A DNA stretch of 64,000 bases from Planctomycetota bacterium (lineage in GTDB: Bacteria > Planctomycetota > UBA8742 > UBA2392): the NCBI GenBank assembly GCA_022071975.1, contig JAJVIO010000052.1:38548-102547 (forward strand), in the 5' to 3' direction. The translations under genes were made by a program, and so were the position numbers. This document shows, piece by piece, positions 4,424-60,036 of the stretch; the first letter of the stretch is position 1, and each line of letters opens with the position of its first letter. The notes beneath the pieces are model-generated. The model was not told where the DNA came from. It ran no database searches and saw only the letters and a list, made by a program, of their open reading frames with translations.

Positions 4424-5057
4424 CCTCCATGCGCATGGGGCGCTGCCAGTGGCGCGCGCGGGACCAGCGGCGCTGCTGGCGCCAGAGGGGCTTGATCGCC
4501 CAGCTTGCGACCTCGCTGCCGACCACCGCAAACGGTGCGGCGAACATGGCGTAGACCACGCCGAACATCAGGACCACGAAAACCATGCAGGCGTTCAGGG
4601 TTTCCCACAATGCAACCATGCCCAGCGCCGCGTAGATCAGCATCAGCCCGAGCCATGAGGTGAACATGCGGCGCTCCGCGCTTGCCGCGGGGCCTAGCAC
4701 GGCCGCGCAGGCCAGCACGCCGATGGCGGGTGGCAGGAGCACAGGCACAAGCCAGTCCTCCAGCGCGAGCGCCGCCGCGAACAAAATCCATTCGAGGGTG
4801 ACCGTAGCTACTGCGCAGGTCATTGCCGCAGTCGCGCTGCGGAGGGGACCTGGTTTACGGGTTTGCCTTGCGCCCGGCAGGGGTGAGGCGTAGGGGACGC
4901 GGACGCTCAAGCGCTTGCCGAATGCCCGGGAGGGGAGGTCCGTGGCACGGGGCGCGGTTCTGCGCCATTCGCCGCTGTCTTCGGGCAGGCGTGTGTCGAT
5001 GAGGACGCCGCCCTTGATAATGGTGCTGTAGACCGTCATGGCGCACCCGTCTTTCAT
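4413..5057 (-). CDS. membrane protein with ~90-aa N-terminal soluble region and C-terminal TM helices, function unknown
   Basis: Coding-like codon usage from the ATG at 5057 (alternative ATG at 5039). The operator-like palindrome lies immediately upstream. Confidence 0.5.
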   Translation of the reverse strand: MKDGCAMTVYSTIIKGGVLIDTRLPEDSGEWRRTAPRATDLPSRAFGKRLSVRVPYASPLPGARQTRKPGPLRSATAAMTCAVATVTLEWILFAAALALEDWLVPVLLPPAIGVLACAAVLGPAASAERRMFTSWLGLMLIYAALGMVALWETLNACMVFVVLMFGVVYAMFAAPFAVVGSEVASWAIKPLWRQQRRWSRARHWQRPMRMEVRP

Positions 5058-5065
5058 TTCGCTAT

Positions 5066-10555: not shown

Positions 10556-10600
10556 GGCGGTCATGGTCGATGGTTAATGGTTGATGGTCAATGGTTCGTG
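10556..10600. repeat. tandem ATGGT(C/T)AATGGTT-type short repeat upstream of radA
   Basis: Seen directly: tcatggtcgatggttaatggttgatggtcaatggttcgtgg. Confidence 0.5.
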
Positions 10601-10603
10601 GCA

Positions 10604-10690
10604 GCGCCCCTACGGGGCGCGATGGGTTGGGCGGATATCATAACCCACGGCTGAAGCCGTGGGCTAAGACCCATGGCCCCTGCGGGGCCG
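10604..10690. repeat. REP-like module (GCGCCCCTACGGGGCGC / CCCACGGCTGAAGCCGTGGG / GGCCCCTGCGGGGCC palindromes)
   Basis: Three perfect palindromes. The same module recurs at 10910-10976 (inverted) and 11445-11531 (direct), flanking the RAYT gene. Confidence 0.7.
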
Positions 10691-10821
10691 AACAGGCGAA
10701 TCCCCGTGGCCTCGATGCGCTGCTAGTCCCCGTGCGCTGCTGGCCGCGATGCTCAGCCAAGCCTCACGCATAGCTGGCCTAGAAGCGCCGGTGGCTATAA
10801 AGGTTGCCGCACCGAGGCCAC

Positions 10822-10917
10822 TTAGCGCCGGAGGGACCGTGCTACTCAGGCCGCTGGCGCCGGAGGCATCGCGGTACTCAGGCCGTTGGCGCCGGAGGCG
10901 CTTTGGTACTTAGCCCA
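10822..10917. repeat. three tandem ~32-bp repeats (TGGCGCCGGAGG...ACTCAGGCCG)
   Basis: Direct tandem repetition seen between REP modules. Confidence 0.55.
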
Positions 10918-10976
10918 CGGCTTCAGCCGTGGGTTTCGGATGCCGTAAACGAATCGCGCCCCGTAGGGGCGCAGCC
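10910..10976. repeat. REP-like module, inverted orientation
   Basis: CTTAGCCCACGGCTTCAGCCGTGGG...GCGCCCCGTAGGGGCGC, the reverse complement of the module at 10604. Confidence 0.65.
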
Positions 10977-11428
10977 TAGTCCCACAAGTAGCGTTCGTCG
11001 TATTCCATTCCGTGACGCTTCAGGAAGTCGATGAGTTCATCCTTGAACCCGCGCTTGAGGTGATGCTCTTCCTGTTCCGCGATGTATCGCTCCACGTTCG
11101 GAATCTTTGATTGACTGACGCTGAACGCGGCGTAGCCGGTCTGCCATGCGAACTTCGTGTCGAGTTTCAGTTCATCGTTCGCCCACCTGGAAGAACTTCC
11201 CTTGATCTGACGCAGGGCGTCGGCAAGCGAGACGGCGGTGCCGAGCCGGCACAGAATGTGTACGTGGTCTTCAACGCCGCCGATGGCGATCAGTTCTCCT
11301 CGAAGTTCTCGAACGATGCCGCCGATGTAGGCGTACAGTCTGGGCTTGGCGTCCGGAGTGATGATCGGCAGCCGATCCTTGGTGCTGAACACGAGGTGAT
11401 AGTTGAGATTGGTGTATGTATGTCCCAT
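10976..11428 (-). CDS. IS200/IS605-like Y1 (HuH) transposase, REP-associated tyrosine transposase (RAYT) type
   Basis: HVHIL HuH motif, catalytic Tyr region YAAFSVS, ~150 aa, start MGHTYTNLNYHLVFSTKDR. Flanked by REP modules. Confidence 0.85.
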   Translation of the reverse strand: MGHTYTNLNYHLVFSTKDRLPIITPDAKPRLYAYIGGIVRELRGELIAIGGVEDHVHILCRLGTAVSLADALRQIKGSSSRWANDELKLDTKFAWQTGYAAFSVSQSKIPNVERYIAEQEEHHLKRGFKDELIDFLKRHGMEYDERYLWD

Positions 11429-11444
11429 GGCGCTCCCTACGGCA

Positions 11445-11531
11445 GCGCCCCTACGGGGCGCGTGTGAATTCGCGACCATGATACCCACGGCTGAAGCCGT
11501 GGGCTAAGTTCTTCGGCCCCTACGGGGCCAA
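11445..11531. repeat. REP-like module, direct orientation (downstream flank of RAYT)
   Basis: GCGCCCCTACGGGGCGC ... CCCACGGCTGAAGCCGTGGGCTAAG ... GGCCCCTACGGGGCC. Confidence 0.65.
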
Positions 11532-11565
11532 TTGCATCGACGGTTCACCCGGATTCGAACCCCGT

Positions 11566-13330: not shown

Positions 13331-14728
13331 CTACTCCGTCGTCCGCAACCTTACGAACGTCAGCCCCACCACCCCGCACACCGCCCCGCAAGCGCCGCCG
13401 ATAAAAAACAGTTCGCGCGGGCCGATCCACCCCAGGGCCGCACCCGTGGCCAGCGCACTCAAGGCCGTAAAACCCTGCACCGTGATGGTCACCAGCGCGA
13501 ACACGCGCCCCAGGCGCGCGCGGGGGTAGTGGCGCTGGATCAGCGTGGTGCGGCCGACGGTGATCAGCGGGATGGTCAGGCCGTGGATGAAGATCGCCAC
13601 CAGGAACTGCGGGAACGTTTCGAGCCACAGGAACGGCACGTAGGTAATGCCGTCCATGAACATGCCGATGATCACCAGCTTGCCGGTCTTGATACGCGAG
13701 CCGAAACGCGCGATCAGCACCGTGCCCACGAACCAGCCCGCCGCCAGGGCGGCCTCGAACACGCCATAGGCCCAGGTTTCCAGCCCCAGGTAGCCCTTGA
13801 TCAGGAACATCGCGCCCACGATCGCCGGGCCCATGATGAAGAAGTTGTCCACGGCCGTAAGGAACAGCAGCGCCCGCAGGCGCGAGTCTTTCCGGGCCGT
13901 GGCCAGGCTCTCGCGCAGCTCGTGGAGACTGCTGGGCCGGGGCCCCAGGGGACTGTCCCCGCTTTTGGGGACTGTCCCCGTCGTCGAAGACTCTTGAACG
14001 TCACCACCGGGAGTGCCAGACAAAGCACCCTCAGACTCATGCGACTTCACTGGCCCGACTACGGGGACAGTCCCCAAAGGCGGGGACAGTCCCCTTTGCT
14101 TGATCAGCAGCACGCACACGAAACTGAACGCGAAGCTGGCCGCGTCGGCCGCCAGCAGCCAGGCGATGCCCGTAGGGCCCGGCTTCTCGGCGCCGTAGAG
14201 TTCCGGCCACAGCAGCAGGCCCACCAGCCCGGCGCCCAGCACCACGGCCAGTTGCTGGCTGGTCTGGAAGATGCTGTTCACGCGCAGCAGCTGATAGCCC
14301 TGGGCCAGGTCGGGGATCAGCGCGTCGCGCGCCGGGTTGAACACCGTGGCGAACAGGTAGCTGCCGAAGGCCACGGCCGGCAGCATCCACCACTGCAGCA
14401 GTCCGGCGAAGTAGAGCACGGGGACCAGGCCGACGATCAGCGCGCGGGCGGCGTCGGAGAGCAGCATGATGCCGCGGCGCGAGAAGCGATCGACCAGCAC
14501 GCCGGCGTAAGCGCCGAAAATCAGGAAGGGCAGGGCGTCCATCATGCGCGTAAGGCCGACCTCAAAGCCGGCGTCGCGCCCGAGCATGTAGATGACCAGA
14601 AAGCCGATGCAGGTAGAGAACACCGAATCACCGGTGCCCGAAACAAACTGCGCCAGCCAGAGCAGGAACAGATTCCGCCGCCGATGAGGCGAAGCAGCAA
14701 CCCCAGACTCAGCACCCGCATCAACCAT
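13331..14728 (-). CDS. MFS transporter carrying an in-frame 49-codon repeat-element insertion in its central cytoplasmic loop
   Basis: Typical 12-TM MFS sequence. The TM6-TM7 loop is expanded by the 13948-14094 element (GTVPKSGDSPLGP...). Confidence 0.8.
   Translation of the reverse strand: MVDAGAESGVAASPHRRRNLFLLWLAQFVSGTGDSVFSTCIGFLVIYMLGRDAGFEVGLTRMMDALPFLIFGAYAGVLVDRFSRRGIMLLSDAARALIVGLVPVLYFAGLLQWWMLPAVAFGSYLFATVFNPARDALIPDLAQGYQLLRVNSIFQTSQQLAVVLGAGLVGLLLWPELYGAEKPGPTGIAWLLAADAASFAFSFVCVLLIKQRGLSPPLGTVPVVGPVKSHESEGALSGTPGGDVQESSTTGTVPKSGDSPLGPRPSSLHELRESLATARKDSRLRALLFLTAVDNFFIMGPAIVGAMFLIKGYLGLETWAYGVFEAALAAGWFVGTVLIARFGSRIKTGKLVIIGMFMDGITYVPFLWLETFPQFLVAIFIHGLTIPLITVGRTTLIQRHYPRARLGRVFALVTITVQGFTALSALATGAALGWIGPRELFFIGGACGAVCGVVGLTFVRLRTTE
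13948..14094. mobile_element. 147-bp MITE-like element with 32-bp terminal inverted repeats, each a tandem pair of GGGGAC(T/A)GTCCCC palindromes
   Basis: Left end GGGGACTGTCCCCgcttttGGGGACTGTCCCC; right end GGGGACAGTCCCCaaaggcGGGGACAGTCCCC. Length is exactly 49 codons, inside the MFS CDS. Confidence 0.65.
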
Positions 14729-19931: not shown

Positions 19932-19944
19932 CAACCAGCGCGGA

Positions 19945-19980
19945 CGGGGACAGTCACCTCAGGTGACTGTCCCCTTTTTT
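19945..19980 (+). terminator. rho-independent terminator GGGGACAGTCACC-TCA-GGTGACTGTCCCC followed by a T-run
   Basis: 13-bp perfect stem plus TTTTTT, 14 nt after the stop codon. Confidence 0.8.
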
Positions 19981-20036: not shown

Positions 20037-21329
20037 ATGACCATTCGACGCCTGTTCCCGTATGCCGCCGTGCTGCTGCTGGGCGTGGCCGCGCAGTTCG
20101 CCGTGCAGGCCCAGGACGAAGTCAACGAAGACGCCAGCGAACGCAAGAGCCCCGCGCGCCGCGGCAGCGCCGAGAAATCGGACGAAGCCAAACGCGACCA
20201 GCCCAGCCTGCCCGCCCTGAAGGTCTACGAGTGGGGCGTGGCCACCATGAACTGGGACGGCAGCGACGAAGGCCCCGACGATGTCCCCGCCTTCTACTAT
20301 GAACCCGGCGAAGTCCCCATGGAGGCGCAACCCGCCGCGCCGCCTCAGCCCGAGCCTGTACCCGAACCCAAGCCGCCGCGCCCGCCGGTCAAGATCCGCA
20401 AGCCGGTGCTGTATTTCGAGTGCGACCGCGACGTGGTGTTCGACCTGGATGTGCGATTCACCAGCGGCAAGATGACCTGGATGTACCCCAAGCCCAACCG
20501 CCTCACCGACGCCTCCACGGCCCAGTGGGACAACATCCAGCTCTACAGCGACAGCGTGGAACGCGACAAGTTCGCCCCGCCCGAGCTGCACGCCGTGGAT
20601 GCCAGCCACTGGGCGGGCTACAGCCGCGACGGCAGCACCGGCAGCATCGTCGTGAACGGCGAGCACGAGCGTTTTCTGTTCTATGAGGGCGCGCGCAACG
20701 GCCTGCCCGAGGCCGATATCTTCATCAACGCCGAGGGCCAGCCGGTGGTCCACAACTACACCGCCCACGAGCTGCTGGACCTGCGCGTGCATGTGGCCGT
20801 CGGCGCGGAGATCTACACCTGCTACGTCGCCCGCGTGCCGGCCGCCAGCGGCGAACAGCCCGGTGAAGTCGTGCTGAAGGACGACGCGCTGGTGGCGCCG
20901 GAGAGCCTGCTGCCCGTCGGCCGCCTGACCAGCGAGACCAGCGCAGCGGGTCTGACCGAAGCCCAGGCCAGGGTGTTCGAGCGCTGCTGGCAGGCCGACA
21001 TGGCGAAAGTCGGCACGATGTCGTGGCGCCGCACCCAGAAGGCGCTGGATGAGCTGATGGAGCTGAAGCTGACCCTGCCCGCCGGCATCGGCAGTGAGGT
21101 CAAGCGCGTGGGCTACGTGCTGGTCAACAACATAGACTTGACACGTCAAGCCGAAATGGAGGCGCTGGTGCAGAAGGCCGCCGAGGGCGACGCCGACGCG
21201 GAAAGCAAGCTGAAGGCCGCCGGCACGGCCGGGGCAGGCGCCCTGCGCCGCGCCATGAGCAACAAGGACATCGGCCTGAAACAGCGCCTGAAGCTCGCCA
21301 AGCTGCTCGGAGAAATGAGCGCTTCGTGA
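20037..21329 (+). CDS. secreted hypothetical protein
   Basis: Signal peptide MTIRRLFPYAAVLLLGVAAQFAVQA; 430 aa; good codon usage; contains an internal CTTGACACGTCAAG palindrome. Confidence 0.7.
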   Translation: MTIRRLFPYAAVLLLGVAAQFAVQAQDEVNEDASERKSPARRGSAEKSDEAKRDQPSLPALKVYEWGVATMNWDGSDEGPDDVPAFYYEPGEVPMEAQPAAPPQPEPVPEPKPPRPPVKIRKPVLYFECDRDVVFDLDVRFTSGKMTWMYPKPNRLTDASTAQWDNIQLYSDSVERDKFAPPELHAVDASHWAGYSRDGSTGSIVVNGEHERFLFYEGARNGLPEADIFINAEGQPVVHNYTAHELLDLRVHVAVGAEIYTCYVARVPAASGEQPGEVVLKDDALVAPESLLPVGRLTSETSAAGLTEAQARVFERCWQADMAKVGTMSWRRTQKALDELMELKLTLPAGIGSEVKRVGYVLVNNIDLTRQAEMEALVQKAAEGDADAESKLKAAGTAGAGALRRAMSNKDIGLKQRLKLAKLLGEMSAS

Positions 21330-21515
21330 GGGCGATGCCCTCGAAGTGCATTTGTCAGGATGGACAGGATGTGAATGGACGCGGACACTTGTGGCGCTCA
21401 ACCTGAACCCGCGTCCTGTTGCTTCCTGTAAGTCCTGACAACTGGAACTGCGGGGAAGCACCAAGAGCAATATCACGGTTCGTTCGCGGCCGTTCTGGCC
21501 CGAAGGGCCCAGCTT

Positions 21516-21665
21516 GGGTAGCCGGGCGCGTAAGCGCCCGGATGCTGGAAACGATCGCTCGCGCGCCCGTAGGGCCGCCGAACCGCGCAGTGCGCCTTTT
21601 GGGCGGCCCTTCGGGCGCCCGGCATCGCGGCTCCAATATCCGGGGGCTGCCGCCCCCGGCTACCC
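21516..21665. repeat. ~150-bp segment bounded by GGGTAGCC/GGCTACCC inverted repeats, orientation A
   Basis: The reverse complement of this segment matches copy 2 (22646-22794) nearly base for base, including the swapped end hairpins CCGGGCGCGTAAGCGCCCGG and CCGGGGGCTGCCGCCCCCGG. Confidence 0.7.
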
Positions 21666-21832
21666 TAGAGCATTTTCATGGTTAGTTTGCAGGCTTCCGC
21701 TTGCGGCGAACTTCGCAGCTCTGCGTCGCGCTACCTCGGCGTGGCCTCCAGCCACGCCTGCGTCCGCGCTCCTTGATCTGCTCGCTCGGCGCTGCGCGGA
21801 ATCTCTGCAAACTAACCATGAAAAAGCTCTAG
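21665..21832. mobile_element. 168-bp MITE-like element with ~28-bp TIRs (CTAGAGCATTTTCATGGTTAGTTTGCAG ... CTGCAAACTAACCATGAAAAAGCTCTAG)
   Basis: Present in repeat copy 1 and absent from copy 2. Internal hairpin GGCGTGGC-CTCCA-GCCACGCC. A homologous element lies at 26163-26332. Confidence 0.65.
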
Positions 21833-22023
21833 CCAGGCCCTTCGGGCCAGTTCGACTGCAAGCGAATCGTGAACGTGTCCTAAGCAGTGCCATGAACGGT
21901 TCAGGTGGCCCTTCGTGGACAACCGCTGTTCGCAGATATCGTGAGACTGTTGAACGGGCTGCCGACTTCGCAACTTCGCGGAATCCTTTACTGGTCGCGA
22001 ATACAGTGTGCTAAACTGCACCC

Positions 22024-22443
22024 ATGCGGCTGATAAGTCTGATCGTATTGATGGTGATTGTTCTGGCCCTCTCCGCCTGTGGCGGTGAGGAGCCCAAGCT
22101 GCAGCCACAGCAACCATCTCCGCCGCCCGCGGCGGCTGAGCCCAAACAAGAGCCGGAACCGGATTCGACAAAGGCCGCCAAGCTTCTGGATCAGCCCAAA
22201 GTAACTCTGAAGCCGGAGAAACCCGTTTCGGCCCGGGTGGATCATATCGCCGAGGCGCGACGCTGCCTCGCGGCAGGCGACACCGAGGGCTACCAGACCG
22301 CGCTGAAGAGCTACAACGAAGTCCTGAAGCGAGACGGTGGAGGACTGACCGTCGTCGCGGTAACAGCCACCTCCGTCACCTGGCGCACGGAAGACGGGCA
22401 AGAGTACACCACCAACCTCTGGCACGACGCCCTGATCGACTAG
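22024..22443 (+). CDS. small lipoprotein, hypothetical
   Basis: Signal peptide with lipobox LALSAC. Lower-GC gene flanked on both sides by the ~400-bp repeat. Confidence 0.6.
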   Translation: MRLISLIVLMVIVLALSACGGEEPKLQPQQPSPPPAAAEPKQEPEPDSTKAAKLLDQPKVTLKPEKPVSARVDHIAEARRCLAAGDTEGYQTALKSYNEVLKRDGGGLTVVAVTATSVTWRTEDGQEYTTNLWHDALID

Positions 22444-22477
22444 GCAAGCTCCACTGACCGCGCACGACGCGAACTAT

Positions 22478-22884
22478 ATTTGTCAGGATGGACAGGATGT
22501 GAATGGACGCGGACACTTGTGGAGCGCTCAAACTGAACCTGCGTCCTGTTGATTCCTGTACATCCTGACAACTGCGACTGCGGGGAACCACCAAGAGCAA
22601 TATCACGGTTCGTTCGCGGCCGTTCTGGCCCGAAGGGCCTGGCTAGGGTAGCCGGGGGCGGCAGCCCCCGGATCTTGGAGCCGCGATGCCGGGCGCCCGA
22701 AGGGCCGCCTAAAAGGTGCACTGCGCGGTTAGGCGGCCCTACGGGCGCGCGAGCGATCTGGTCCAGCTTCCGGGCGCTTACGCGCCCGGCTACCTTAGCG
22801 GGGCCCTTCGGGCCAGTTCGACTGCAAGCGAATCGTGAACGTGCCCTATGGAGTGCCATGAACGGTTCAGGTGGCCCTTCGTGG
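22478..22884. repeat. ~400-bp structured repeat, copy 2 (no MITE; internal segment in orientation B)
   Basis: See copy 1. Confidence 0.75.
22646..22794. repeat. ~150-bp segment bounded by GGGTAGCC/GGCTACC, orientation B (inverted relative to copy 1)
   Basis: Direct base-for-base comparison of the two copies. Confidence 0.7.
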
Positions 22885-22911
22885 TTAACAGCTTTTTACC
22901 GTTGCCAATCA

Positions 22912-22934
22912 CAAAGGCCGCCTCTGGCGGCCTT
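22912..22934. terminator. hairpin AAGGCCGCC-TCTG-GCGGCCTT downstream of thyX
   Basis: Perfect 9-bp stem seen after the thyX stop. Confidence 0.5.
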
Positions 22935-22960
22935 CGCGTTCTTCGCATCTTCGCGTGAAA

Positions 22961-23902
22961 CTAAACCTTGCGGTGGGTGGTGCGGGTGCGTTCGCTGCCG
23001 TCGGGCAGCTTGACGATCTCGTAGTCGCCGAACAGGTTGGGCGCTTCCTTCTTCAGCAGCCGCGCCACGTCGCAGGCCAGGGCCCGGATCTCCGCCTCGG
23101 CGTGGATGTCGCCCCGCAGCTCGATGAAGTGCCGCCACGAGCGCGCGTTGCCCGTCACAAAAATCTTCGTCTCCGTCGCGTTCGGCAGCACCGAGCGCGC
23201 GGCCTCACGAGCCGATTTGCGACGGCCGCGGATGGTCTTCTTCTTGAAGTACTTGGCCACGCCCTCGTTCCTGCCCACCAGCGCCCGCCAGTCGTTGATG
23301 CTGAGCTTGTCGTGGCCTTCAACAGCTTCACCGAAGGTGAACTTTCCGTTTTCGCCCTCGGTGAGCTGTTCTTCCCGCAATGCGAAATCCACCAGGCCCT
23401 CGGGCGTGGCGTACTTCTCGGCGAGTTTCTCGGTCAGTTCCGCGTAGACCTTCAGCGTTGCGTCGCAGTGGTCCTTCAGCAGCTTCTCCAGCTCGGCGTC
23501 GCCCTGCACCGCGGGCGGGATCACGAACTGGGCCTCGGTTTCGTCCACGTAGCGCTGGCTGAGCTGGCTGTACGCGAAGCCGGCGCGGTGGCGCACCAGC
23601 TCGTGCGTCAGGCTGCGGCTCACGCCGGTCAGCAGCAGGCTGAACACCGCGTGCTCCAGCACGCTGCCGTGGCCCACCTGCATGATGTGCCCCAGGTAGC
23701 TGGCGTTGTCTTTGCGGCCCTGCTTGTCGCCGAAGCTCATGTAACAGATGCGCCCCGCCAGCTCAGGGATGCGCTGGGCGGCGTTGTCCGTGTCGGTCTG
23801 CCAGGTGTCGGCTTCGTTCTCGAGGAAGCGCTGCACCTCGGCCTCAGGCATGACCTGCTTGCCGACCAGGTAGATGTTCGCGCGGTTGAAGTACTTTTGC
23901 AT
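22961..23902 (-). CDS. thyX: FAD-dependent thymidylate synthase
   Basis: ThyX signature RHRxxxxxxS...SQRY (HELVRHRAGFAYSQLSQRY); ~313 aa from the MQKYFNRANIYLVG start. Confidence 0.9.
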   Translation of the reverse strand: MQKYFNRANIYLVGKQVMPEAEVQRFLENEADTWQTDTDNAAQRIPELAGRICYMSFGDKQGRKDNASYLGHIMQVGHGSVLEHAVFSLLLTGVSRSLTHELVRHRAGFAYSQLSQRYVDETEAQFVIPPAVQGDAELEKLLKDHCDATLKVYAELTEKLAEKYATPEGLVDFALREEQLTEGENGKFTFGEAVEGHDKLSINDWRALVGRNEGVAKYFKKKTIRGRRKSAREAARSVLPNATETKIFVTGNARSWRHFIELRGDIHAEAEIRALACDVARLLKKEAPNLFGDYEIVKLPDGSERTRTTHRKV

Positions 23903-24018
23903 GGCGGGACGATACACGCTCAAGCCCGCAGGGCAGCACTGTGGATAGGTGTCGGAAAAGCGGCACGGAGCGCGGGCATCTTGCCCGCAAATCCGGCGGC
24001 CGGGACGGCCGCGTTCCG

Positions 24019-24510
24019 TCACATCAACATCGGGTCCACGTCGTCGTGCTCGGGCGCGAGGCCGGTGTCGTCGGCCGGCGCGAGCTCAGCGCCCTCTTCG
24101 GGGCCGTCGGGGATGGTGAAGTCGCGGGTGGCTTTTTCCACCTCGTCGAACTTGTCCAGCGCGGGCTTGGTCTTGGCGGCGTCGTTCGGGTTCATGGCTT
24201 CGAAGAAGCGCACCTGCGCCGCGAAGTCCTGGGCCGCGCGGGCGACTTCACCGACGGCCGTGCCGATGCGCCCGCGCACGTGGCGGATGTCGCCGGCCTC
24301 CAGTGTGCGGTCTTTCTCCAGGCCGCCGTCCAGCTTCTTGAGTGCCGCAAGCGAGCCCTCGAGCTCAGATGCGATCTGCATGAAGTCGGCGGCGAGGCTG
24401 TCGCCGTCCGTGGGCTCGGAGCCCGTGGCGAACGGCTCGGTGATGGACGCGCAAAGCCTGGCGGCCTCAACGCGCTTCTCCAGGAACAGAAGCGTAAGTT
24501 CAGCGGACAT
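24019..24510 (-). CDS. acidic hypothetical protein upstream of thyX
   Basis: 163 aa with natural composition on the same strand as thyX, 116 bp upstream. Confidence 0.55.
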   Translation of the reverse strand: MSAELTLLFLEKRVEAARLCASITEPFATGSEPTDGDSLAADFMQIASELEGSLAALKKLDGGLEKDRTLEAGDIRHVRGRIGTAVGEVARAAQDFAAQVRFFEAMNPNDAAKTKPALDKFDEVEKATRDFTIPDGPEEGAELAPADDTGLAPEHDDVDPMLM

Positions 24511-24639
24511 GCGGTCCCCGTTTTCGTCTGGTGCTGCCGCATGATAACGAAGGTCGCGCGATTGCTGAACCCTGTTTGGCCTGTGGAGAAAATTTGGCTA
24601 ACCGGCCGTCCATGTGGGACAATCTGGGCGGAGGCTCAA

Positions 24640-24975
24640 ATGCCCTACGTGTTCTATGAGCTGCCGGCGGATTCGTCCGAGCTGGAGACCTTCAACGGCT
24701 ACCAGGTCAGCCGCATCGTGACCCGTGCCGAGGGCGGGCCGGTACCGCCAACCGTTGATCCGTTTGAACCCGCGCCGGAGCTGGTGCTGCAGGGCGCGCG
24801 CCGCCCGTGGTTCGAGCCCGTGCTGTCGCGCGCGCCGGCCAAAATGGGCATGGCCCGCCGCGTGCCGACCCGCGCCTGGTGCATGCGCGGCTTCATGACA
24901 CCGCGCGCCGTGGCCAGCTACCTGTCCGTGCCGTCATTGTGCTTCACACTCGTCTGGCTGCTCGGCCGGATATAG
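24640..24975 (+). CDS. possible small hypothetical protein
   Basis: ATG at 24640 inside the 23941-24975 frame; coding-like GC3. Weak support only. Confidence 0.25.
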   Translation: MPYVFYELPADSSELETFNGYQVSRIVTRAEGGPVPPTVDPFEPAPELVLQGARRPWFEPVLSRAPAKMGMARRVPTRAWCMRGFMTPRAVASYLSVPSLCFTLVWLLGRI

Positions 24976-25109
24976 CGGCACAGATGTACTTATCCGTGCC
25001 CGGACGCGCGCCCCAGGCGAGTGTTTCCATGGGCGGGGACACCCATGCCACGCCGGCCCCTGTACTCTGTACGCCGTACCCTGTACTCAGTACTCCCGTG
25101 CCCGACTTC

Positions 25110-26168
25110 ATGCTCAAACGCCACCTGCCGAACCTGGACGTGCCCCACGTTCAGCTCGGTGAGTACCCCACGCCCGTTGAGCATCTGCCGGCGCTGGGAG
25201 ACGTTTGGCTCAAGCGCGAGGACCTGTCCTCGCCGCTCTACGGCGGCAACAAGATCCGCACGCTGGAAACACTGTTCGCGGACGCCCTGGCGCGCGGCTT
25301 CAAGCGGGTCTGGACGCTGGGCGCCTACGGCAGCAACCAGGCCGTCGCCTGCATCCTGCACGCCAGGCGCGTCGGCCTTCAACCCGGCGCCGTGCTATTC
25401 CCCCAGCGCGCCACGCCCACGGCCGCGGAAAACCTGCGCGTAATGGTGACCGCTTGCGACGAAGTTGTCGCACTGCGCAGCCTGCTGACGTTCCCCTGGC
25501 ACTGGCTGAAGCTGAAGCGCTCGCGCGAAATCTACCTGGTGCCGCCCGGCGGCGCCGTGCCCCTGGGCGCGCTGGGCCACGTGGGCGCGGCGCTTGAACT
25601 GGCGGAACAGATCAACGCCGGGGCCATGCCCGCGCCGCGCCACATTGTGCTGGCGATCGGCAGCACCTGCACCACGGCGGGTCTGCTGGTGGGCCTGCCG
25701 CTCGCGCGGCAGCTTGGTTTATGGCCCGGCGAGCTTCCGCTGGTGCACGCCGTGCGCGTGACGCCCTGGCCCGTGACCGCGCGCTTTCAGGTGCTAAGGC
25801 TGGCGCGGGCCACTGCGCGCTACCTGGCGCAGGTCGGCGGGCCCGTTGTGAAGCTGCAACCCGAGCGGCTTGTGCTGAACACGCGCCACTTCGGCTGGGG
25901 CTACGCGCGCATCACCCAGGGCGGGCTCGCGGCCGCGAAGCACTTCGCCGAGCTGATGGCGCCGCCCCTGGACACCACCTACGCGGCGAAGTCCGGCGCG
26001 GCGCTGCTGGAGATGCTCGACACCGGGGACAGTCCCCTGCGGGGACAGTCCCCGGTCCTGTACTGGTGCACCAAATCCAGCGCGCCGCTGCCGCCCGTTG
26101 ACGAAGCAAAGCTCGCGACCGCCCCGGGTTACATCCGGCGCTGGCTGAAGCGCGCGGACAAGCTCTAG
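25110..26168 (+). CDS. PLP-dependent ACC deaminase / D-cysteine desulfhydrase family enzyme
   Basis: YGGNKIRTLE motif (family signature GGNKxRKLE). The C-terminal GDSPLRGQSP is encoded by a GGGGACAGTCCCC repeat pair. Confidence 0.8.
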   Translation: MLKRHLPNLDVPHVQLGEYPTPVEHLPALGDVWLKREDLSSPLYGGNKIRTLETLFADALARGFKRVWTLGAYGSNQAVACILHARRVGLQPGAVLFPQRATPTAAENLRVMVTACDEVVALRSLLTFPWHWLKLKRSREIYLVPPGGAVPLGALGHVGAALELAEQINAGAMPAPRHIVLAIGSTCTTAGLLVGLPLARQLGLWPGELPLVHAVRVTPWPVTARFQVLRLARATARYLAQVGGPVVKLQPERLVLNTRHFGWGYARITQGGLAAAKHFAELMAPPLDTTYAAKSGAALLEMLDTGDSPLRGQSPVLYWCTKSSAPLPPVDEAKLATAPGYIRRWLKRADKL

Positions 26169-26332
26169 AGCATTTTTAGATCGACTGTACCGGCTGCTGC
26201 GCGCGGCGGACTTCGCATCTCTTCGTCGCGCTCCCTCGGCGTGGCCTCCAGCCACGCCTGCGTCCGCGCTTCTTGACCTGCTCGTCCGTCGCTGCGCATC
26301 AGCACGGTCCACTCAATCTAAAAAAGCTCTAA
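26163..26332. mobile_element. second copy of the 168-bp CTAGAG-TIR MITE, in a convergent intergenic region
   Basis: ~85% identical core to 21665-21832 (…CTCGGCGTGGCCTCCAGCCACGCCTGCGTCCGCGCT…). The TIR CTAG motifs supply the TAG stops of both flanking genes. Confidence 0.65.
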
Positions 26333-29995: not shown

Positions 29996-31538
<1,543 letters not shown>

Positions 31539-31688
31539 TACATAGACTTCTATGAGAGGCGACTCTCATAGTCGTAAGGCATATCCTCTTTCATGGCTAT
31601 TCAACATACGCGTGCGCGGGGGCCCTGTCGTCTCGGGGCCCCCTTCGCACCCTTCGCAGTGGAAGACGGGCCGGCAACGGTCTCGGGC

Positions 31689-31765
31689 GCGCCGGTAGCT
31701 CAGCTGGTTAGAGCACACGCCTGATAAGCGTGAGGTCGGCGGTTCGAGTCCGCCCCGGCGCACCA
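31689..31765 (+). tRNA. tRNA-Ile (anticodon GAT)
   Basis: Cloverleaf with acceptor GCGCCGG/CCGGCGC, anticodon loop CTGATAA, encoded CCA. Confidence 0.9.
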
Positions 31766-31787
31766 TTCCACGGCAGCCGGGACGCAA

Positions 31788-31862
31788 GGGCCGGTAGCTC
31801 AGTGGTAGAGCGTCGCCTTTGCAAGGCGAGGGTCAGGGGTTCGACTCCCCTCCGGTCCACCA
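31788..31862 (+). tRNA. tRNA-Ala (anticodon TGC)
   Basis: Acceptor GGGCCGG/CCGGTCC with the G3:U70 identity pair, anticodon loop TTTGCAA, encoded CCA. Confidence 0.9.
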
Positions 31863-32280
31863 GCCTTCGCACTTTGTGCTTCGGCTGTCAGGCCAGGCGG
31901 CGCGCGTATGAGGTCGAGGTTTGGGAATGTGCGCCTGGGCGCATGCTCTCGAGCCCCGACGACGAGTCGGGTTTCGGCTCTTTGACAACAGCATACTGTG
32001 ATAGATCAGAGTGACTAGATTACTCCAGATTAGTGTTATCCTAGTAAGATAACCTATTCGCTAAGCCGCCGCCGGGAGGCGTCGGAAAGCGCGCGTCTGG
32101 AGAAAGTAACCAAGGCATCAACGATGAAACAGCAGCTGACGTCGCGAGACGTCGGGTGCTGACGCTACAACGTGTCTTGAGGCCTCAGCCACGGGATTGG
32201 CCGGGCGGCTTGTATTGTCGGCCCGGTCGGGAACGGAGCGAGAGGAAAGCGCACTCCTGGAGGGATCCAGGGGTTGTTGT

Positions 32281-35240
<2,960 letters not shown>

Positions 35241-35399
35241 CAACAATCTCCGGGTCTCCCGGAGTGTTGCAAAGCAAACGTGTATTAGCGATTCCAAGAC
35301 ACGTCGTTAGCGTCTCACGTGATGCCTTGTCACTAAAATCTATCCAGTATGCTGTTGTCAGCGAGCCGCGCTCGCTTTGAAAACCTTACGAGAATTTTT

Positions 35400-35508
35400 C
35401 TCGGTGCCCTTACCCTCGGGGACACACCCGATCCCATCTCGAACTCGGAAGTTAAGCCCGTGGGGCCGATGATAGTCGAAAGGCGAAAGTAGGTTGGTGC
35501 CGGGATAT
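35400..35508 (+). rRNA. rrf: 5S ribosomal RNA
   Basis: Conserved CCCATCTCGAACTCGGAAGTTAAGC and GCCGATGATAGT blocks. The terminal helix CUCGGUGCC/GGUGCCGGG pairs through G-U wobbles. Confidence 0.8.
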
Positions 35509-38742: not shown

Positions 38743-40437
38743 CTAACTCTTGGGCATGATCTTGGTGGTGCCGAACACCTTCAGCAGGTTCTGGAACGCG
38801 GCCTGTTTCTCGAGGGCGGCAAATGCCGGGTCCATCAGGCGTTTGCGGTCACGGAAGCCGTTCTTGACCGCGCGCTCCAGCAGTTTCAGCCCTTCAAGCG
38901 GGTCCTCGGGCGTAGTCAAAACCGCCAGCCAGAACAACGTCTCCGCGAAACTGGGATTGATCTCAAGGGCCCGCTCCAGCATGCGGCGGGCCTTGTCTTT
39001 CTCGTTGCGGCCGATCAGCAGCACTGCCAGCGCCACGTAGCCGCGCTCGTCGGCGGGCACCAGCTCGATGCACTTTTCGTACTCGCGCTCGGCGGCTTTC
39101 CAGGCGCGACCCTTTTCAAAAATCTTGCCCAGGCTGATGCGCGCCTCCACGTTGTGGGCGTTGAGTTTCAGCGCGTAAGTCAGGTTTTCGCGCGCGCCGG
39201 AAAGGTCGCCGGCCATGCGCTGCAGGCTGCCCAGGAAGCTGCGCCCGCGAGGATCTTCGGGGTTCAGCTTCACGGCCATTTCGTAGTCAGCCAGGGCTTC
39301 TTTCATCTTGCGCTGCTTGCGGTAGATGTGGCCGCGCAGCAGGAACAGCCGCGGATCGTTTGATTTCAGGCGCATGGCCTGCTCGATCTGCTTCAGGGCA
39401 TCATCGTAGCGCGCCACCTTCATGGCGGCCTGGGCGTCCGTGACCGAGTTTTCGACCTGGGTGGTCATCGACAGGATTGCCAGCTCGATGGTCTCATTGC
39501 GATCGAGCTCTTCACTGGCGGCCTCGGCGGCTTGCCGCGCCATGCGATAAATGCCGCTTTCACCGCCGCGCGGCACGCTGACCGTGCGCCGACGCAGGCC
39601 GCGGATCAGCTCCGCGGCAGCCTCCAGGTCTTCGGCCAGTTCCTCGGCGTCCTGGTAGCGGTGGTCCGGGCTCTTGGCCAGCATGCGGTTCACGATGCGC
39701 TCAAGCTCGCGCGGCAGGCCGGGCCGCAGCTCGGACAGCGGCGGGTAGTCGTCCTGCTGGTGCATCAGGATCAGCGCCTGGCTGGTCTCACCCAGGAAGG
39801 GGCGGCGTCCGGTCAGCAGCAGGTAGAGTGTGACGCCCAGGCTGTAGATGTCGCTGCGCCCGTCCACGGGCTCGCCGCGGCACTGCTCGGGGCTCATGTA
39901 GGGCGGGCTGCCCGAGTGGCCGGCGCTGGCGTCGCTGCCCATGGCGGCCGCCACGCCGAAGTCGGAAATCTTCACGCGCCCGTTGTTGAGGATCAGCAGG
40001 TTGTCGGGCTTGATGTCGCGGTGCACCAGCTTGCGCTTATGGGCGTAGCTCAGGCCGCGCGCGCACTGGCCGGCGATGCGCACGGCCAGCAGCGGGTCAA
40101 CGCCCTGGCGCGAAACCAGGCGGCTGACGGGCACGCCGTCCACCAGCTGCATAACGATGTAGGGTTGGCCCTCGTGCTCATCGACGGCGTAGACCGGCGT
40201 GATGTTGGGGTGCTCGAGCTGCCCGGCCATGCGCGCCTCGTTCATGAAGCGCGCGCGCAGGGTGTCATTGCGGGCCAGCTCGCGCGGCAGCACCTTAACG
40301 GCGACGTCTTTGTCGAGGCCGGTGTGCTTGGCCTTGTAGACGTGGCCCATGCCGCCCTGCCCGATGCGCTCGAGCAGGATGCATTTGCCCAGGGTAAGCC
40401 CCTTCAGGTTTTCCGGATCCTCACGGGTGCCCGCCAT
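38743..40437 (-). CDS. Ser/Thr protein kinase with C-terminal TPR repeats
   Basis: GQGGMGHVYKA, VAVK, HRDIKPDN, DFG, APE motifs, then multiple TPR units. Confidence 0.9.
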   Translation of the reverse strand: MAGTREDPENLKGLTLGKCILLERIGQGGMGHVYKAKHTGLDKDVAVKVLPRELARNDTLRARFMNEARMAGQLEHPNITPVYAVDEHEGQPYIVMQLVDGVPVSRLVSRQGVDPLLAVRIAGQCARGLSYAHKRKLVHRDIKPDNLLILNNGRVKISDFGVAAAMGSDASAGHSGSPPYMSPEQCRGEPVDGRSDIYSLGVTLYLLLTGRRPFLGETSQALILMHQQDDYPPLSELRPGLPRELERIVNRMLAKSPDHRYQDAEELAEDLEAAAELIRGLRRRTVSVPRGGESGIYRMARQAAEAASEELDRNETIELAILSMTTQVENSVTDAQAAMKVARYDDALKQIEQAMRLKSNDPRLFLLRGHIYRKQRKMKEALADYEMAVKLNPEDPRGRSFLGSLQRMAGDLSGARENLTYALKLNAHNVEARISLGKIFEKGRAWKAAEREYEKCIELVPADERGYVALAVLLIGRNEKDKARRMLERALEINPSFAETLFWLAVLTTPEDPLEGLKLLERAVKNGFRDRKRLMDPAFAALEKQAAFQNLLKVFGTTKIMPKS

Positions 40438-51817: not shown

Positions 51818-51896
51818 AAGGAACTATCCCCGTAGTCGATCCGTGAAGCGGTCTCGTTGGCCGTCACGTGTTGGATGGGTTTCGCCGGCTCGAAGA

Positions 51897-51925
51897 CGGG
51901 GACAGTCCCCTGCGGGGACAGTCCC
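51897..51925. repeat. tandem pair GGGGACAGTCCCC-TGC-GGGGACAGTCCCC, 8 bp upstream of the MATE start
   Basis: Seen directly; the same pair occurs at 26025-26053. Confidence 0.7.
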
Positions 51926-51933
51926 CAACGCTT

Positions 51934-53322: not shown

Positions 53323-54519
53323 TTATGCCCCTGCCATCAGCATCATCATGCAGCCGCCCATCATCAGGATGATCACGCCGATCACCGCCAGCGCGATCCA
53401 CAGCAGCTTGTTCGACGAGCTGCTGCTCGTGGGGTACGCGTGCGGGTAGCCGGGCGCCGGTGAAGCGTGCATGGGCGTGGCGTGCACCGGCGGCTGGGTC
53501 CAGGCCGGCTGGCTGGGCGGCGGGGGCGTCGGCGCGGCGGGCACGTACTGGCTGACCGAGCCGTGCTCGAGCAGATCTTCCAGCGAGTTCAGCCGCACGC
53601 TGCCCACCATCTGCGCCAGCCGGTCGTGCACCTCGCGCGCGCTGGGGCGCTGGGCGGCGTCGCGGCTGGTCATGCTGATCAACAGGTACACGGCGGCGTC
53701 GGGCAGGTGCCCGAACTTCTCGCGCTCGTAGGGCACGTCCTTGTTCACGTGCTGCACGGCGATACTGACCGGCGTAGTGCCGTTGTAGGGCGGCGCGCCG
53801 GTGATCAGGTGCCAGGCCGTGATGCCCAGGCTGTAGATGTCCGAGCGCTGGTCGATCTCCTGGCCGTGGGATTGCTCCGGGCTCATATAATGCGCCGTAC
53901 CGATCGCCGCGCCCGGCATGGTCAGCTCGGTGGTGGCTTCCACGGCGCGCGCGAGGCCGAAGTCGCCCAGTTTCACGCGGCCGTCCTTGGCCACGAAAAT
54001 GTTGTGCGGCTTGATGTCGCGGTGCACGATGCCCTGCGCGTGGGCATGCGCCAGGCCGTCGGCCACCTGCGCGATCACCTTCAGCGCCGCCATGCCGGCC
54101 AGCGGCCCGTGCTTCTTCAGCAGCGCGGAGAGGTCGGTGCCGTCCACGAACTCCATCACGATGTAGGGCGTGCCGTTTTGCTCGGCCACGTCCAGCACGC
54201 GCACGATGTTGGGGTGATCCAGCTTCGCGGCCGTGCGGGCCTCGCGCAGGAAGCGCTGGCGGCCCATGGAGTCGCGGGCCAGGGCCTCGCCCATGGTCTT
54301 GACGGCCACGGGCACGTCGAGGCCCAGGTGCAGGCCCTTGTAGACCTTGCCCATGCCGCCGGCACCCAGCTCGCGGGTGACCTGCACCTGGCCGAAGCGC
54401 AGGTTGAGCTCGGGCTCGGGGGGCGGGTCGGCGGGCTGCTGCGACGTGGCCGAGTCGGAACCGACCTCAAGCAGGGTCTGTTCCTCGACAGGTTTGAATG
54501 CGTGTTTATCGTCAGGCAT
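53323..54519 (-). CDS. Ser/Thr protein kinase with Pro-rich linker and C-terminal TM anchor
   Basis: GAGGMGKVYKG, VAVK, HRDIKPHN, DFG motifs; C-terminal LLWIALAVIGVIILMMGG. Confidence 0.9.
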   Translation of the reverse strand: MPDDKHAFKPVEEQTLLEVGSDSATSQQPADPPPEPELNLRFGQVQVTRELGAGGMGKVYKGLHLGLDVPVAVKTMGEALARDSMGRQRFLREARTAAKLDHPNIVRVLDVAEQNGTPYIVMEFVDGTDLSALLKKHGPLAGMAALKVIAQVADGLAHAHAQGIVHRDIKPHNIFVAKDGRVKLGDFGLARAVEATTELTMPGAAIGTAHYMSPEQSHGQEIDQRSDIYSLGITAWHLITGAPPYNGTTPVSIAVQHVNKDVPYEREKFGHLPDAAVYLLISMTSRDAAQRPSAREVHDRLAQMVGSVRLNSLEDLLEHGSVSQYVPAAPTPPPPSQPAWTQPPVHATPMHASPAPGYPHAYPTSSSSSNKLLWIALAVIGVIILMMGGCMMMLMAGA

Positions 54520-55722: not shown

Positions 55723-55778
55723 CCAAACTCACTCGACCTGCAGTTGGGCCGCGAAAACCCGAAGGCATGAAAAGCTTC

Positions 55779-55842
55779 ATCGCGCAGAGAGCGCAGAGGA
55801 CACAGAGAGGTAACTCTGCGATCTCTGCGGCCTCTGCGCGAT
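55779..55842. repeat. hairpin ATCGCGCAGAGAGCGCAGAGGACACAGAGAGG ... CTCTGCGATCTCTGCGGCCTCTGCGCGAT, same family as 7640-7730
   Basis: The first 20 nt are identical to the 7640 element; the ends are perfectly complementary. Confidence 0.6.
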
Positions 55843-56032
55843 GATTGCTTTTCCGTGAGTCTCCGCGAAATCCGTGGCTTGGCGCTTCTTCGCGGTTCCA
55901 TGCGTGGTTCCGGCCCTTGTTTCGTGAAACAATCCCCGCTAGCTTTGCGTTCCAGTGATGGCGCGACGGGCCGTATCCGTCGGGCCGGGTTGTGTGGCGG
56001 TTCGTATCCGTCACCGAAACGGGAGAAAAACC

Positions 56033-58119: not shown

Positions 58120-58220
58120 TTGGCTGGTTCTGGCCCGCATAGCGGGCCAGCGAATGTAGCCTTGGGCGCAAGCCCAAGGTTGAATTGTTGCCGCAATCTT
58201 CAAGCCCGCGTAGCGGGCGA
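58120..58220. repeat. REP-like palindromes (GGCCCGCATAGCGGGCC; CCTTGGGCGCAAGCCCAAGG; GCCCGCGTAGCGGGC) upstream of the second RAYT
   Basis: Perfect palindromes seen directly; a different family from the 10604 modules. Confidence 0.6.
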
Positions 58221-58699: not shown

Positions 58700-58800
58700 G
58701 CGGCTCGGTCGCCCGCTACGCGGGCTTGCACTCCCGTTGTCACGGGAACCTGGGGCTGGCGCCCCAGGCTATAGTCGTGGCGCCCGCTATGCGGGTGTAG
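58700..58800. repeat. REP-like palindromes downstream of the second RAYT (GCCCGCTACGCGGGC; CCTGGGGCTGGCGCCCCAGG; GCCCGCTATGCGGGTG)
   Basis: Seen directly. Confidence 0.6.
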
Positions 58801-59944: not shown

Positions 59945-60036
59945 CTGCATGTGAACCACGAAGGAACACGAAGGGCCACGAAGAACTGCATTGTGCAGTG
60001 TGAACTCTTCGTGGCCCTTGGCGGTGCTTCGTGGTT
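59945..60036. terminator. bidirectional hairpin with CACGAAG-unit arms between convergent genes
   Basis: GAACCACGAAGGAACACGAAGGGCCACGAAGAACTGCA ... TGCAGTGTGAACTCTTCGTGGCCCTTGGCGGTGCTTCGTGGTT. Confidence 0.6.

Follow-up and report, generated by a model that had tools for sequence, protein, structure and literature searches.

Two copies of one intergenic region, which we call element E, lie on either side of a small lipoprotein gene in a 64,000-nucleotide stretch of planctomycete DNA (GenBank contig JAJVIO010000052.1, positions 38,548 to 102,547; hereafter the window, with coordinates counted from its first letter), and by alignment the core of the second copy is inverted relative to the first copy and to the orthologous element of related genomes. 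Each copy of E holds a palindromic element of about 236 bp that is of the REP (repetitive extragenic palindrome), BIME (bacterial interspersed mosaic element) or REPIN (REP doublet forming hairpins) kind. The account of the whole that we favour, with roughly even confidence, is that of a REPIN-like palindrome whose copy-2 core was flipped by a rare, essentially neutral inversion.

An inverted core in one of two copies

Element E is the whole intergenic region, and its two copies are about 91% co-linear. The parts that matter here, none of them assigned to a strand, are these:

21342..21930: copy 1 of E, the derived copy; hp1 (an imperfect hairpin), the long palindrome and a 3' tail, interrupted by a miniature inverted-repeat transposable element (MITE); 91% co-linear with copy 2
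22470..22896: copy 2 of E, at the ancestral site, with the lipoprotein gene on one side and thyX on the other
21510..21668: core of copy 1, orientation A; linker CAGCTTG, GGTAGCC-REP ... REP'-GGCTACC, CTAG
22640..22801: inverted block of copy 2, orientation B; TGGCTAG, GGTAGCC, REP hairpin b, hairpin 3, centre, hairpin 3', REP hairpin a, GGCTACC, TTAGCGG
22625..22639: left 15-bp repeat CTGGCCCGAAGGGCC, which is hairpin 2; left break-point zone
22802..22816: right 15-bp repeat GGCCCTTCGGGCCAG, which is hairpin 2'; right break-point zone

The flanks of the two copies are co-linear, with 160 of 176 positions identical on the left (90.9%) and 89 of 98 on the right (90.8%), in agreement with a first-pass annotation of this stretch that had described two repeat copies bracketing the lipoprotein gene. 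That annotation also held that an internal segment stands in opposite orientation in the two copies, and here too it was right: on realignment, segments 21516-21665 and 22646-22794 match at 141 of 150 positions (94%) as reverse complements and at only 116 of 155 (75%) directly. Because each segment is only 75-76% complementary to itself, the 94% match is not a by-product of palindromy, and the difference between the copies is a true DNA inversion. Its extent, however, had been drawn too short. The inverted block measures 162 bp and also includes a 7-nt linker at either end of GGTAGCC...GGCTACC. Reverse-complementing the left linker of copy 2, TGGCTAG, gives exactly CTAGCCA, the right linker found in copy 1 and in the related contig L056; the right linker of copy 2, TTAGCGG, likewise turns into (C)CGCTAA, the left linker in the allele of the related contig L232. 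(The copy-1 right linker is split, its remainder, CCA, standing at 21833-21835, past the MITE.) Once flipped, the copy-2 block is identical to L232 at 153 of 161 positions and to copy 1 at 151 of 162.

The outer arms (TCACGGTTCG... and ...CGAATCGTGA) are co-linear between the copies and lie outside the inversion, which places the exchange points in or at the two perfect 15-bp inverted repeats that bound the block. The earlier proposal that the segment is bounded by inverted repeats is supported.

Orientation of the core in related genomes

Both orientations recur at the orthologous element, as follows:

Orientation A: window copy 1, the reference for A
Orientation A: L056, 158/162 positions
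Orientation A: L001, downstream copy, 112/113 positions, partial
Orientation A: L232, L233, L234 and L238, 146-147/161 positions, on contigs of up to 151 kb from several samples
Orientation A, weakly: L235, L239 and L240, copy-1-type REP over the first 32 nt only
Orientation B: window copy 2, the reference for B
Orientation B: L241, copy-2-type left junction identical over 54 nt and then a deletion of ~110 nt; coverage 1.1x

As the downstream element normally stands in orientation A in the relatives, this orientation is the ancestral one at that position, and the flip is recent, in the lineage that gave rise to copy 2.

Could the flip be an assembly artefact of the source genome? Palindromes and inverted repeats can confuse assemblers, but we give this explanation hardly any credence. 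The perfect inverted repeats are only 15 bp long, below the usual assembly k-mers. Additionally, the flipped block carries substitutions of its own, and L241, an independent assembly (ENA ERZ15185972), shares the copy-2-type junction over 54 nt. The deletion in L241 (at 1795-1810), which removes the centre and right half of the core, may itself be either a real palindrome deletion or an artefact of the 1.1x coverage.

Anatomy of the palindrome

The palindromes and the hairpin beside them, again without strand, are:

21473..21872: REPIN-like long palindrome of copy 1, 236 bp after removal of the MITE; core in orientation A
22603..22838: REPIN-like long palindrome of copy 2, 236 bp; a single long hairpin when folded as single-stranded DNA
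21349..21444: hp1, an imperfect hairpin with 36-nt arms on the 5' side of E, with its counterpart in copy 2 at 22480-22571

Folded as single-stranded DNA, the 236-bp unit reaches -100.9 kcal/mol (z = -10.3), and none of 200 shuffled sequences is as stable. The complementary arms of the copy-2 palindrome run from 22594 to 22712 and from 22729 to 22847. Each is compound and consists, from the outside inwards, of an outer arm (CACGGTTCG...), small hairpin 2 (GGCCCGAAGGGCC), a 7-nt linker, GGTAGCC with a REP hairpin of 8-bp stem, a spacer and hairpin 3; hairpin 2 is formed by each 15-bp perfect repeat folding on its own. Beyond these repeats, the arms TCACGGTTCGTTCGCGGCCGTTC... and ...GTTCGACTGCAAGCGAATCGTGA pair imperfectly with each other and are co-linear in both copies. 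The hairpin hp1 is kept in the distant relative L243, at 4967-5061 (87%).

Both copies have the same core ends: on the left GGTAGCC with a CCGGGCGC-GTAA-GCGCCCGG hairpin, on the right a CCGGGGGC-TGCC-GCCCCCGG hairpin with GGCTACC. Each end is therefore an imperfect short palindrome with GTAG at its 5' foot (CTAC on the other strand), which is how a REP is recognized, and the two GTAG-tagged REPs of each core are inverted to one another, as in a BIME or REPIN (for definitions, see PMC3333891 and PMC3337134). Pairing in the REP stem is kept by compensatory changes (GGGCGC/GCGCCC, GGGGGC/GCCCCC, CTTGGGC/GCCCAAG).

An Rfam motif at the core ends

All four core ends of the two copies match the Rfam motif Acido-Lenti-1 (RF01687; gathering score 37), always facing outward:

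22770..22815, plus strand: Acido-Lenti-1, 38.5 bits, above the gathering score; REP hairpin, CTAC, linker, hairpin 2
21496-21541, minus strand: mirror match, 34.5 bits, below the gathering score
22626-22671, minus strand: mirror match, 33.7 bits, below the gathering score
21640-21674, plus strand: match cut by the MITE, 23.9 bits, below the gathering score

Within each arm, the motif covers the stretch made up of REP hairpin, CTAC, linker and hairpin 2. Its best match in the window, at 11484-11529 (41.4 bits), adjoins one of two Y1 transposase genes described below, and weak matches of 24.8-26 bits lie on both sides of the other. Weinberg et al. (2010; PMC2864571) rated the motif as likely RNA and described 89 instances, in Acidobacteria and Lentisphaerae, sometimes near group II introns. 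The annotated Stockholm alignment shows hairpin repeats clustered in Lentisphaera and contains no gene labels.

These matches bear on the suggestion, made in the first-pass annotation, that the whole repeat is a structured RNA with an internal module that can exist either way round. An Acido-Lenti-1 RNA, or a larger one, would fit the Rfam scores at or near the gathering score, the grading by Weinberg et al. and the compensatory changes in the REP stem. The matches, however, form mirror pairs on both strands and bound transposase genes as their terminal modules, as a DNA repeat would. Copies also occur in any orientation relative to genes, a reverse complement conserves neither RNA sequence nor G-U pairs, and hairpin covariation is predicted equally well for single-stranded DNA substrates of HUH enzymes. 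We therefore regard a small RNA as highly improbable. An orphan Rfam 'sRNA' motif would instead be explained as the terminal module of a REP/transposase system, which should aid annotation in Planctomycetota, Acidobacteria and Lentisphaerae.

Y1 transposase genes and the wider family

The same annotation had found no recombinase encoded nearby. This does not hold in full, as the window contains two genes for Y1 transposases with like hairpin modules, although the enzymes are of the HUH type and are not invertases:

10979..11428, minus strand: Y1 (HUH) IS200-like transposase gene 1; Pfam Y1_Tnp 92.7 bits, NCBIfam IS200/IS605 71.4 bits
58239-58685, plus strand: Y1 (HUH) IS200-like transposase gene 2, found by tblastn; 46% identical to gene 1

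Gene 1 is flanked by inverted modules of the Acido-Lenti-1 type, at 10642-10689 (plus), 10888-10935 (reverse complement) and 11480-11531 (plus). To the left of gene 2 (58131-58220) stand hairpin 2, linker, GTAGCC-REP and hairpin 3, and the right flank (58700-58800) mirrors the left. Two further observations concern these flanks. The surroundings of gene 1 (10600-11540) form a REPtron-like cluster with three tandem 32-nt units (10825-10920), GCGCCCCTACGGGGCGC hairpins at 10604-10620, 10958-10975 and 11443-11461, and three copies of a CCCACGGCTGAAGCCGTGGGCTAAG module. The right REP of gene 2, CCTGGGGCTGGCGCCCCAGGCTAT, differs from the REP of the element by one compensated stem pair, one loop base and CTAT for CTAC.

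The Y1 proteins conserve the HUH motif (DHVH) and the catalytic tyrosine (Y115), and score 69.9-72.7 bits against the IS200/IS605 TnpA model NCBIfam NF033573 (cut-off 55). They share a Y(I/V)xxQxxHH motif (YIAEQEEHH and YILGQDEHH) and so carry the Y---Q--HH signature of TnpA-Y1 subclass 1.2, the signature alone being compared, and not the Y---NP motif of REP-associated tyrosine transposases (RAYTs; PMC6006769). Neither do the genes look like copies of an insertion sequence, whose ends are not inverted, which has one active strand and whose copies are near-identical: their flanks are mirror images and the genes are 46% identical. Against the curated RAYT model, three of these proteins score so far below the cut-off that the system is best described as REPIN/RAYT-like, appearing to work in that manner without being a canonical RAYT system; the protein encoded at locus L032, in another genome, gave no match to that model (NF047646) at E <= 0.01.

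The family extends well beyond the window. A scan for the pattern GGTAGCCGGGNGCNNNNGCNCCCGG against metagenome contigs and one genome per species returned at least 230 loci, some of which are chance matches in high-GC coding DNA (for example, of Streptomyces). A large share of the listed loci have hairpin 2, a linker of about 7 nt, GGTAGCC-REP, hairpin 3, a centre and then the mirror image of all this, with cores of 141-164 bp. Among the matches listed, the full architecture occurs in metagenome-assembled genomes (MAGs) assigned by their labels to Planctomycetota, Phycisphaerales, Phycisphaerae and Verrucomicrobiales. The window itself is most closely related to planctomycete MAGs, and related MAGs hold at least several loci of the REP pattern each. 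In the subfamily closest to the window, some 45 nt of outer arm are conserved along with the core, which argues that the mobile unit takes in the arms and not the core alone; the outer-arm 20-mer CAATATCACGGTTCGTTCGC had no match in a scan of representative genome contigs.

In at least about 20 loci found by the REP pattern alone, in planctomycete MAGs and metagenomes, a Y1 gene lies exactly between two REPs (for example, L032 5904-6515, L084 602-1193 and L144 3051-3661), and it is in other genomes only that we found a cognate Y1 gene flanked by this REP class. As such full-length relatives carry the gene between the hairpin-3 modules, the core in the window can be read as a gene-less, REPIN-like, non-autonomous derivative, and we are confident, if short of certain, that the element derives in this way from a Y1-transposase unit.

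Family copies whose arms can be told apart keep core and arms co-linear, with identities of 0.77-0.93 directly and 0.70-0.78 as reverse complement, pairwise comparisons that resolve closely related copies only. A 4-nt polarity marker beside hairpin 3 (GCGCGCCCG versus GGGCGCCCG) was considered for scoring flips and set aside as too labile. At L044 (3265-3413) the core may be flipped relative to family members of the same arm type, the signal being weak (0.70 direct and 0.75-0.76 as reverse complement).

How the core may have been flipped

The most likely route is host recombination, or template switching during replication, between short inverted repeats that lie close together in a palindrome able to form a hairpin; either would flip the segment between them. 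Recombination between inverted repeats can proceed independently of RecA, which is the basis for this route. We put about even confidence in an inversion mediated by the host rather than by a transposase, and the change itself would presumably be neutral. Closely related family copies are co-linear, so the flip is exceptional and no routine outcome of transposition.

It is possible, though doubtful, that the flip of the same REPIN-like element was instead catalysed by a Y1 HUH transposase. Such an enzyme might cut single-stranded DNA near the REP modules on either strand, excise the core as a circle and re-join it, on the opposite strand, into the re-sealed palindromic donor; alternatively, it might exchange strands between the two mirror sites. 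Several observations fit. The two Y1 genes of the window share the module architecture, and the inverted unit ends exactly at the boundary of linker and hairpin 2 on both sides. In E. coli, TnpA-REP binds GTAG-REPs, cleaves both BIME strands at C|T in inverse REPs (iREPs) and linkers and performs strand transfer, and BIME diversification through excision and re-integration has been proposed (PMC3333891); on the iREP strand, hairpin 2 of our element has the sequence GGCCC|TTCGGGCC, in which stem and loop meet at a C|T that may be relevant. Against this route, no cognate enzyme for this REP class is encoded in the window, and the proteins present are IS200-like rather than canonical RAYTs, with a putative activity on such substrates. 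The route also needs excision followed by re-insertion at the identical site, and the co-linearity of core and arms in family copies means that re-insertion in random orientation is not regular.

A more specific idea, which we consider rather unlikely, is that the flip is a natural footprint of Y1 (HUH) action on a REPIN, with cuts at hairpin 2 on either strand and the core re-joined in reverse. If true, it would be the first in vivo evidence for the excision and re-integration route of REP/BIME diversification; it would also locate the cleavage sites of an uncharacterized IS200-like REP system of the subclass 1.2 type and make Acido-Lenti-1 its recognition module.

A third route is very unlikely in our view, namely that the core is an independent mobile unit that entered two palindrome centres in opposite orientations, or that an ectopic copy took the place of the copy-2 core. 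Mobility is known for REPIN-type elements (PMC3116915), a target made of hairpin 2 and hairpin 2' looks alike on both strands, and L243 is without the element at this intergenic position. However, the flipped core with its linkers agrees with copy 1 and with L232 at 93-95% of positions, a match equal to or better than that of the adjoining DNA, while 70-80% is all that other family copies reach. Core and outer arms travel together in other genomes, and no core-less outer arms occur among the at least 230 REP-pattern loci, a pattern that is unable to retrieve such sites, for which no dedicated search was made.

Several points weigh against our preferred account of a REPIN-like palindrome flipped by the host. 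A perfect repeat of 15 bp is short for RecA-dependent exchange, and the sequence alone would fit a host-mediated and a transposase-mediated inversion equally. Only two copies of this REP class occur within the 64-kb window, and the REP hairpins at its Y1 genes (CCCACGGC.. at one and CCTTGGGC../CCTGGGGC.. at the other) differ from those of the element (CCGGGCGC../CCGGGGGC..). The curated RAYT model (NF047646, cut-off 80) gave only 23.2, 18.4 and 22.5 bits for the three proteins. As for the orientation census, L001 is a short metagenome contig that could be chimeric, and L241 combines 1.1x coverage with its deletion of ~110 nt. Whichever route was taken, the locus offers a clean natural case of palindrome-core inversion at 15-bp repeats in which ancestral and derived alleles are known, and it makes host-driven and transposase-driven rearrangement of REPINs testable against each other.

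No sign of a switch

A short segment bounded by inverted repeats that occurs both ways among close relatives invites comparison with a phase-variation switch, as the first-pass annotation had proposed, and several short-read contigs terminate at or within the element; the gene controlled would be that of the lipoprotein or thyX. We nonetheless regard a programmed switch as very unlikely. Copy 2 lies where the 3' ends of the two genes converge (lipoprotein gene on the plus strand, thyX on the minus strand), and a sigma-70 promoter scan of 21250-23000 found no site, a result obtained with an E. coli-type consensus that may not fit planctomycetes and that to this extent tells against our account. 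A scan of the same interval for intrinsic terminators was likewise empty, and by Pfam labels the conserved neighbourhood encodes no serine or tyrosine invertase. The element is mirror-symmetric and has the same hairpin architecture in both orientations, so flipping alters nothing obvious. Orientation is stable in the L232-L238 assemblies from several samples, both orientations are known across different assemblies and not from one clonal population, and contig ends are expected anyway at multi-copy palindromes.

Since the hairpin architecture is the same whichever way the core faces, and neither copy could hold a promoter directed at a gene, the core inversion is very probably not a phase-variation switch, and the finding does not point to a new regulatory device of that kind. 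The promoter of the lipoprotein gene is probably held by the spacer downstream of copy 1, which is conserved in relatives that have no copy 1.

History of the locus

The genes and the insertion that frame this history are:

22024..22443, plus strand: lipoprotein gene, 139 aa, signal peptide followed by Cys; ancestral at the locus
22961..23902, minus strand: thyX, FAD-dependent thymidylate synthase (Pfam Thy1, 191.8 bits); convergent with the lipoprotein gene
21665..21832, no strand: MITE, 168 bp, inserted at the CTAG of the copy-1 right linker, with CTAG (or TA) duplicated

The lipoprotein has three homologues, of 97, 88 and 57% identity, and on all their contigs the gene order is the same: a Na/Ca exchanger, CarboxypepD_reg, a 430-aa protein, the lipoprotein and, on the opposite strand, thyX. 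By Pfam, the conserved neighbourhood reads Na_Ca_ex, CarboxypepD_reg, the 430-aa protein, the lipoprotein, Thy1, PALP and ECH, together with small proteins of 163-188 and 111-116 aa that have no Pfam match; exact-protein look-ups of the upstream 430-aa protein and of ThyX returned no match. Synteny that holds down to 57% protein identity shows the lipoprotein gene to be an old resident and not a recent capture. Its G+C content is only modestly lower (0.56-0.64 versus 0.62-0.71), and this, with the old synteny, led us to reject a recently mobilized low-GC cassette.

The first-pass suggestion of a cassette between the repeats nonetheless contained something of value, because the gene is polymorphic for presence. 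L056 (98.8 kb, 92-94% identical to the window) has a single E, with no lipoprotein gene and no MITE, and its element has a copy-1-like left flank and a copy-2-like right flank. In the 88% relatives (L232-L238) and in L241, by contrast with the window, the downstream spacer is E with its palindrome, while the upstream spacer is an unrelated 380-400 nt that ends in the short motif GGCCCTTCGTGGACAACCGCTGTTCGCAG of E. This difference upstream marks copy 1, and not the gene, as the derived insertion.

Copy 1 probably replaced a different upstream spacer by unequal recombination at the shared GGCCCTTCGTGG... motif, between two diverged haplotypes. On the simplest reading, a gene-less haplotype (U-E-thyX) would have recombined with a gene-bearing one at this short motif. 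The reverse order would have the duplication come first, followed by deletion of the gene through recombination between copy 1 and copy 2 in L056. Identity to L241 steps from 87.6% in the upstream gene to 98.6% across 21905-22698 and 93.3% on the thyX side, and identity to L001 from 100% to 99.6% and 93.8%. These steps fall at the repeats, so the repeats coincide with recombination break points. Repeats of this sort can thus act as places at which a spacer is duplicated or a small gene deleted or exchanged. Within 20700-24982, recombination seems to have swapped a segment of about 0.8 kb with the lipoprotein gene between diverged lineages.

Other palindromic repeats occupy the same spacers. 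A GCGCAGAGAGCGCAGAGG-type repeat (window 55777-55844, L232 3750-3830, L241 890-960) fills the upstream spacer of the relatives that is replaced here by copy 1. The most distant relative, L243, keeps hp1 together with the end motif and has no palindrome at this position. We considered L243 as a clean empty site and rejected it: the element is absent, and the position is held by another palindromic repeat, of the CACGAAGG type (L243 5060-5150). That type is also found in the window, at 59954-60036, and the end motif GGCCCTTCGTGG shared by both spacers looks like its remnant.

The 168-bp insertion that had been noticed in copy 1 is indeed a MITE. Its terminal inverted repeats are 28 nt long and 96% identical, it is flanked by the duplicated CTAG, and L056 and L232 have the empty site with a single CTAG. 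Further copies are found at 26165-26331 of the window (78%), in L091 and, identical, in L001. The copy at 26165-26331 sits at the very end of an open reading frame (24807-26168), whose stop codon TAG falls on the insertion junction.

Elsewhere in the window are a separate palindromic repeat family built on GGGGACAGTCCCC (13947-14095, 19936-19974, 26015-26053 and 51888-51926); a complete rRNA operon (29996-35505; 16S, two tRNAs, 23S and 5S), with an expansion in the 23S alignment near 32560-32635; and paralogous gene segments at 39809-40356 and 53798-54360, 14 kb apart and 71-76% identical.

Comparison with known systems

With invertible switches such as fimS/FimBE and hin/gin, the element shares a short segment, bounded by inverted repeats, that occurs in two orientations. 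It differs from them in that we found no invertase gene, internal promoter or switchable gene, and in the mirror symmetry of the segment.

Nearer at hand are the IS200/IS605 elements such as IS608 and ISDra2, which belong to the same protein family and have subterminal hairpins at their ends, and whose single-stranded DNA chemistry would, by analogy, be expected here. Unlike in those elements, the flanks of our genes are mirror images, and the two genes in the window, at 46% identity, are not identical copies of an insertion sequence. Gene-less palindromic derivatives of IS200/IS605 elements are known as PATEs. Subclass 1.2 of TnpA-Y1 (Quentin et al. 2018; PMC6006769) is described as IS200-related, low in copy number, generally without terminal hairpins and mostly found in Cyanobacteria and Bacteroidetes. 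The Y---Q--HH signature and the low copy number agree with that description, whereas the genes here are flanked by elaborate GTAG-tagged hairpin modules and reside in Planctomycetota.

The closest parallel is with the REP/BIME/REPIN and RAYT systems of E. coli and Pseudomonas (PMC3333891, PMC3116915, PMC3337134), in which GTAG-footed palindromes in an inverted pair form a long hairpin, a Y1 HUH transposase gene present once is bordered by the same REPs, and doublets without a gene are dispersed through intergenic regions. The present system departs from them in its IS200-like transposases (Y---Q--HH, not Y---NP) with scores below the RAYT cut-off, its compound arms (outer arm, hairpin 2, REP and hairpin 3) and its planctomycete host. 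Its unit of ~236 bp is also larger than the REP doublets of P. fluorescens SBW25, for which the parts of PMC3337134 consulted give inter-REP distances of 18-112 bp. We found no report of flipped or inverted REPINs in the REPIN papers that we consulted.

GTAG repeats in Planctomycetes and Verrucomicrobia appear in Di Nocera et al. (2013), as do TIRYTs, Y1 genes with inverted-repeat flanks that can form repeat families, as in Koribacter versatilis; in the portions of that work available to us (PMC3733652), we did not meet this specific family, its three-hairpin arms or the link to Acido-Lenti-1. With RF01687 itself, our element shares the two-hairpin motif and its conserved GCUA linker, with matches of 41.4 and 38.5 bits where the gathering score is 37. 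The Rfam entry describes an sRNA gene of Acidobacteria and Lentisphaerae whose function is unknown, whereas in our planctomycete the motif comes in mirror pairs and forms the end module of a unit made of DNA repeat and transposase.

Three features seem not to be described in the literature that we consulted: Acido-Lenti-1 as the terminal module of a REP/transposase system of this kind, a REPIN core inverted in place for which the ancestral allele and the derived one are both known, and the tie between Y---Q--HH IS200-like proteins and GTAG-REPs with their REPIN-like derivatives. The last of these connects a group of transposases described as being without terminal structures to the GTAG-tagged palindromes that typify REP systems.

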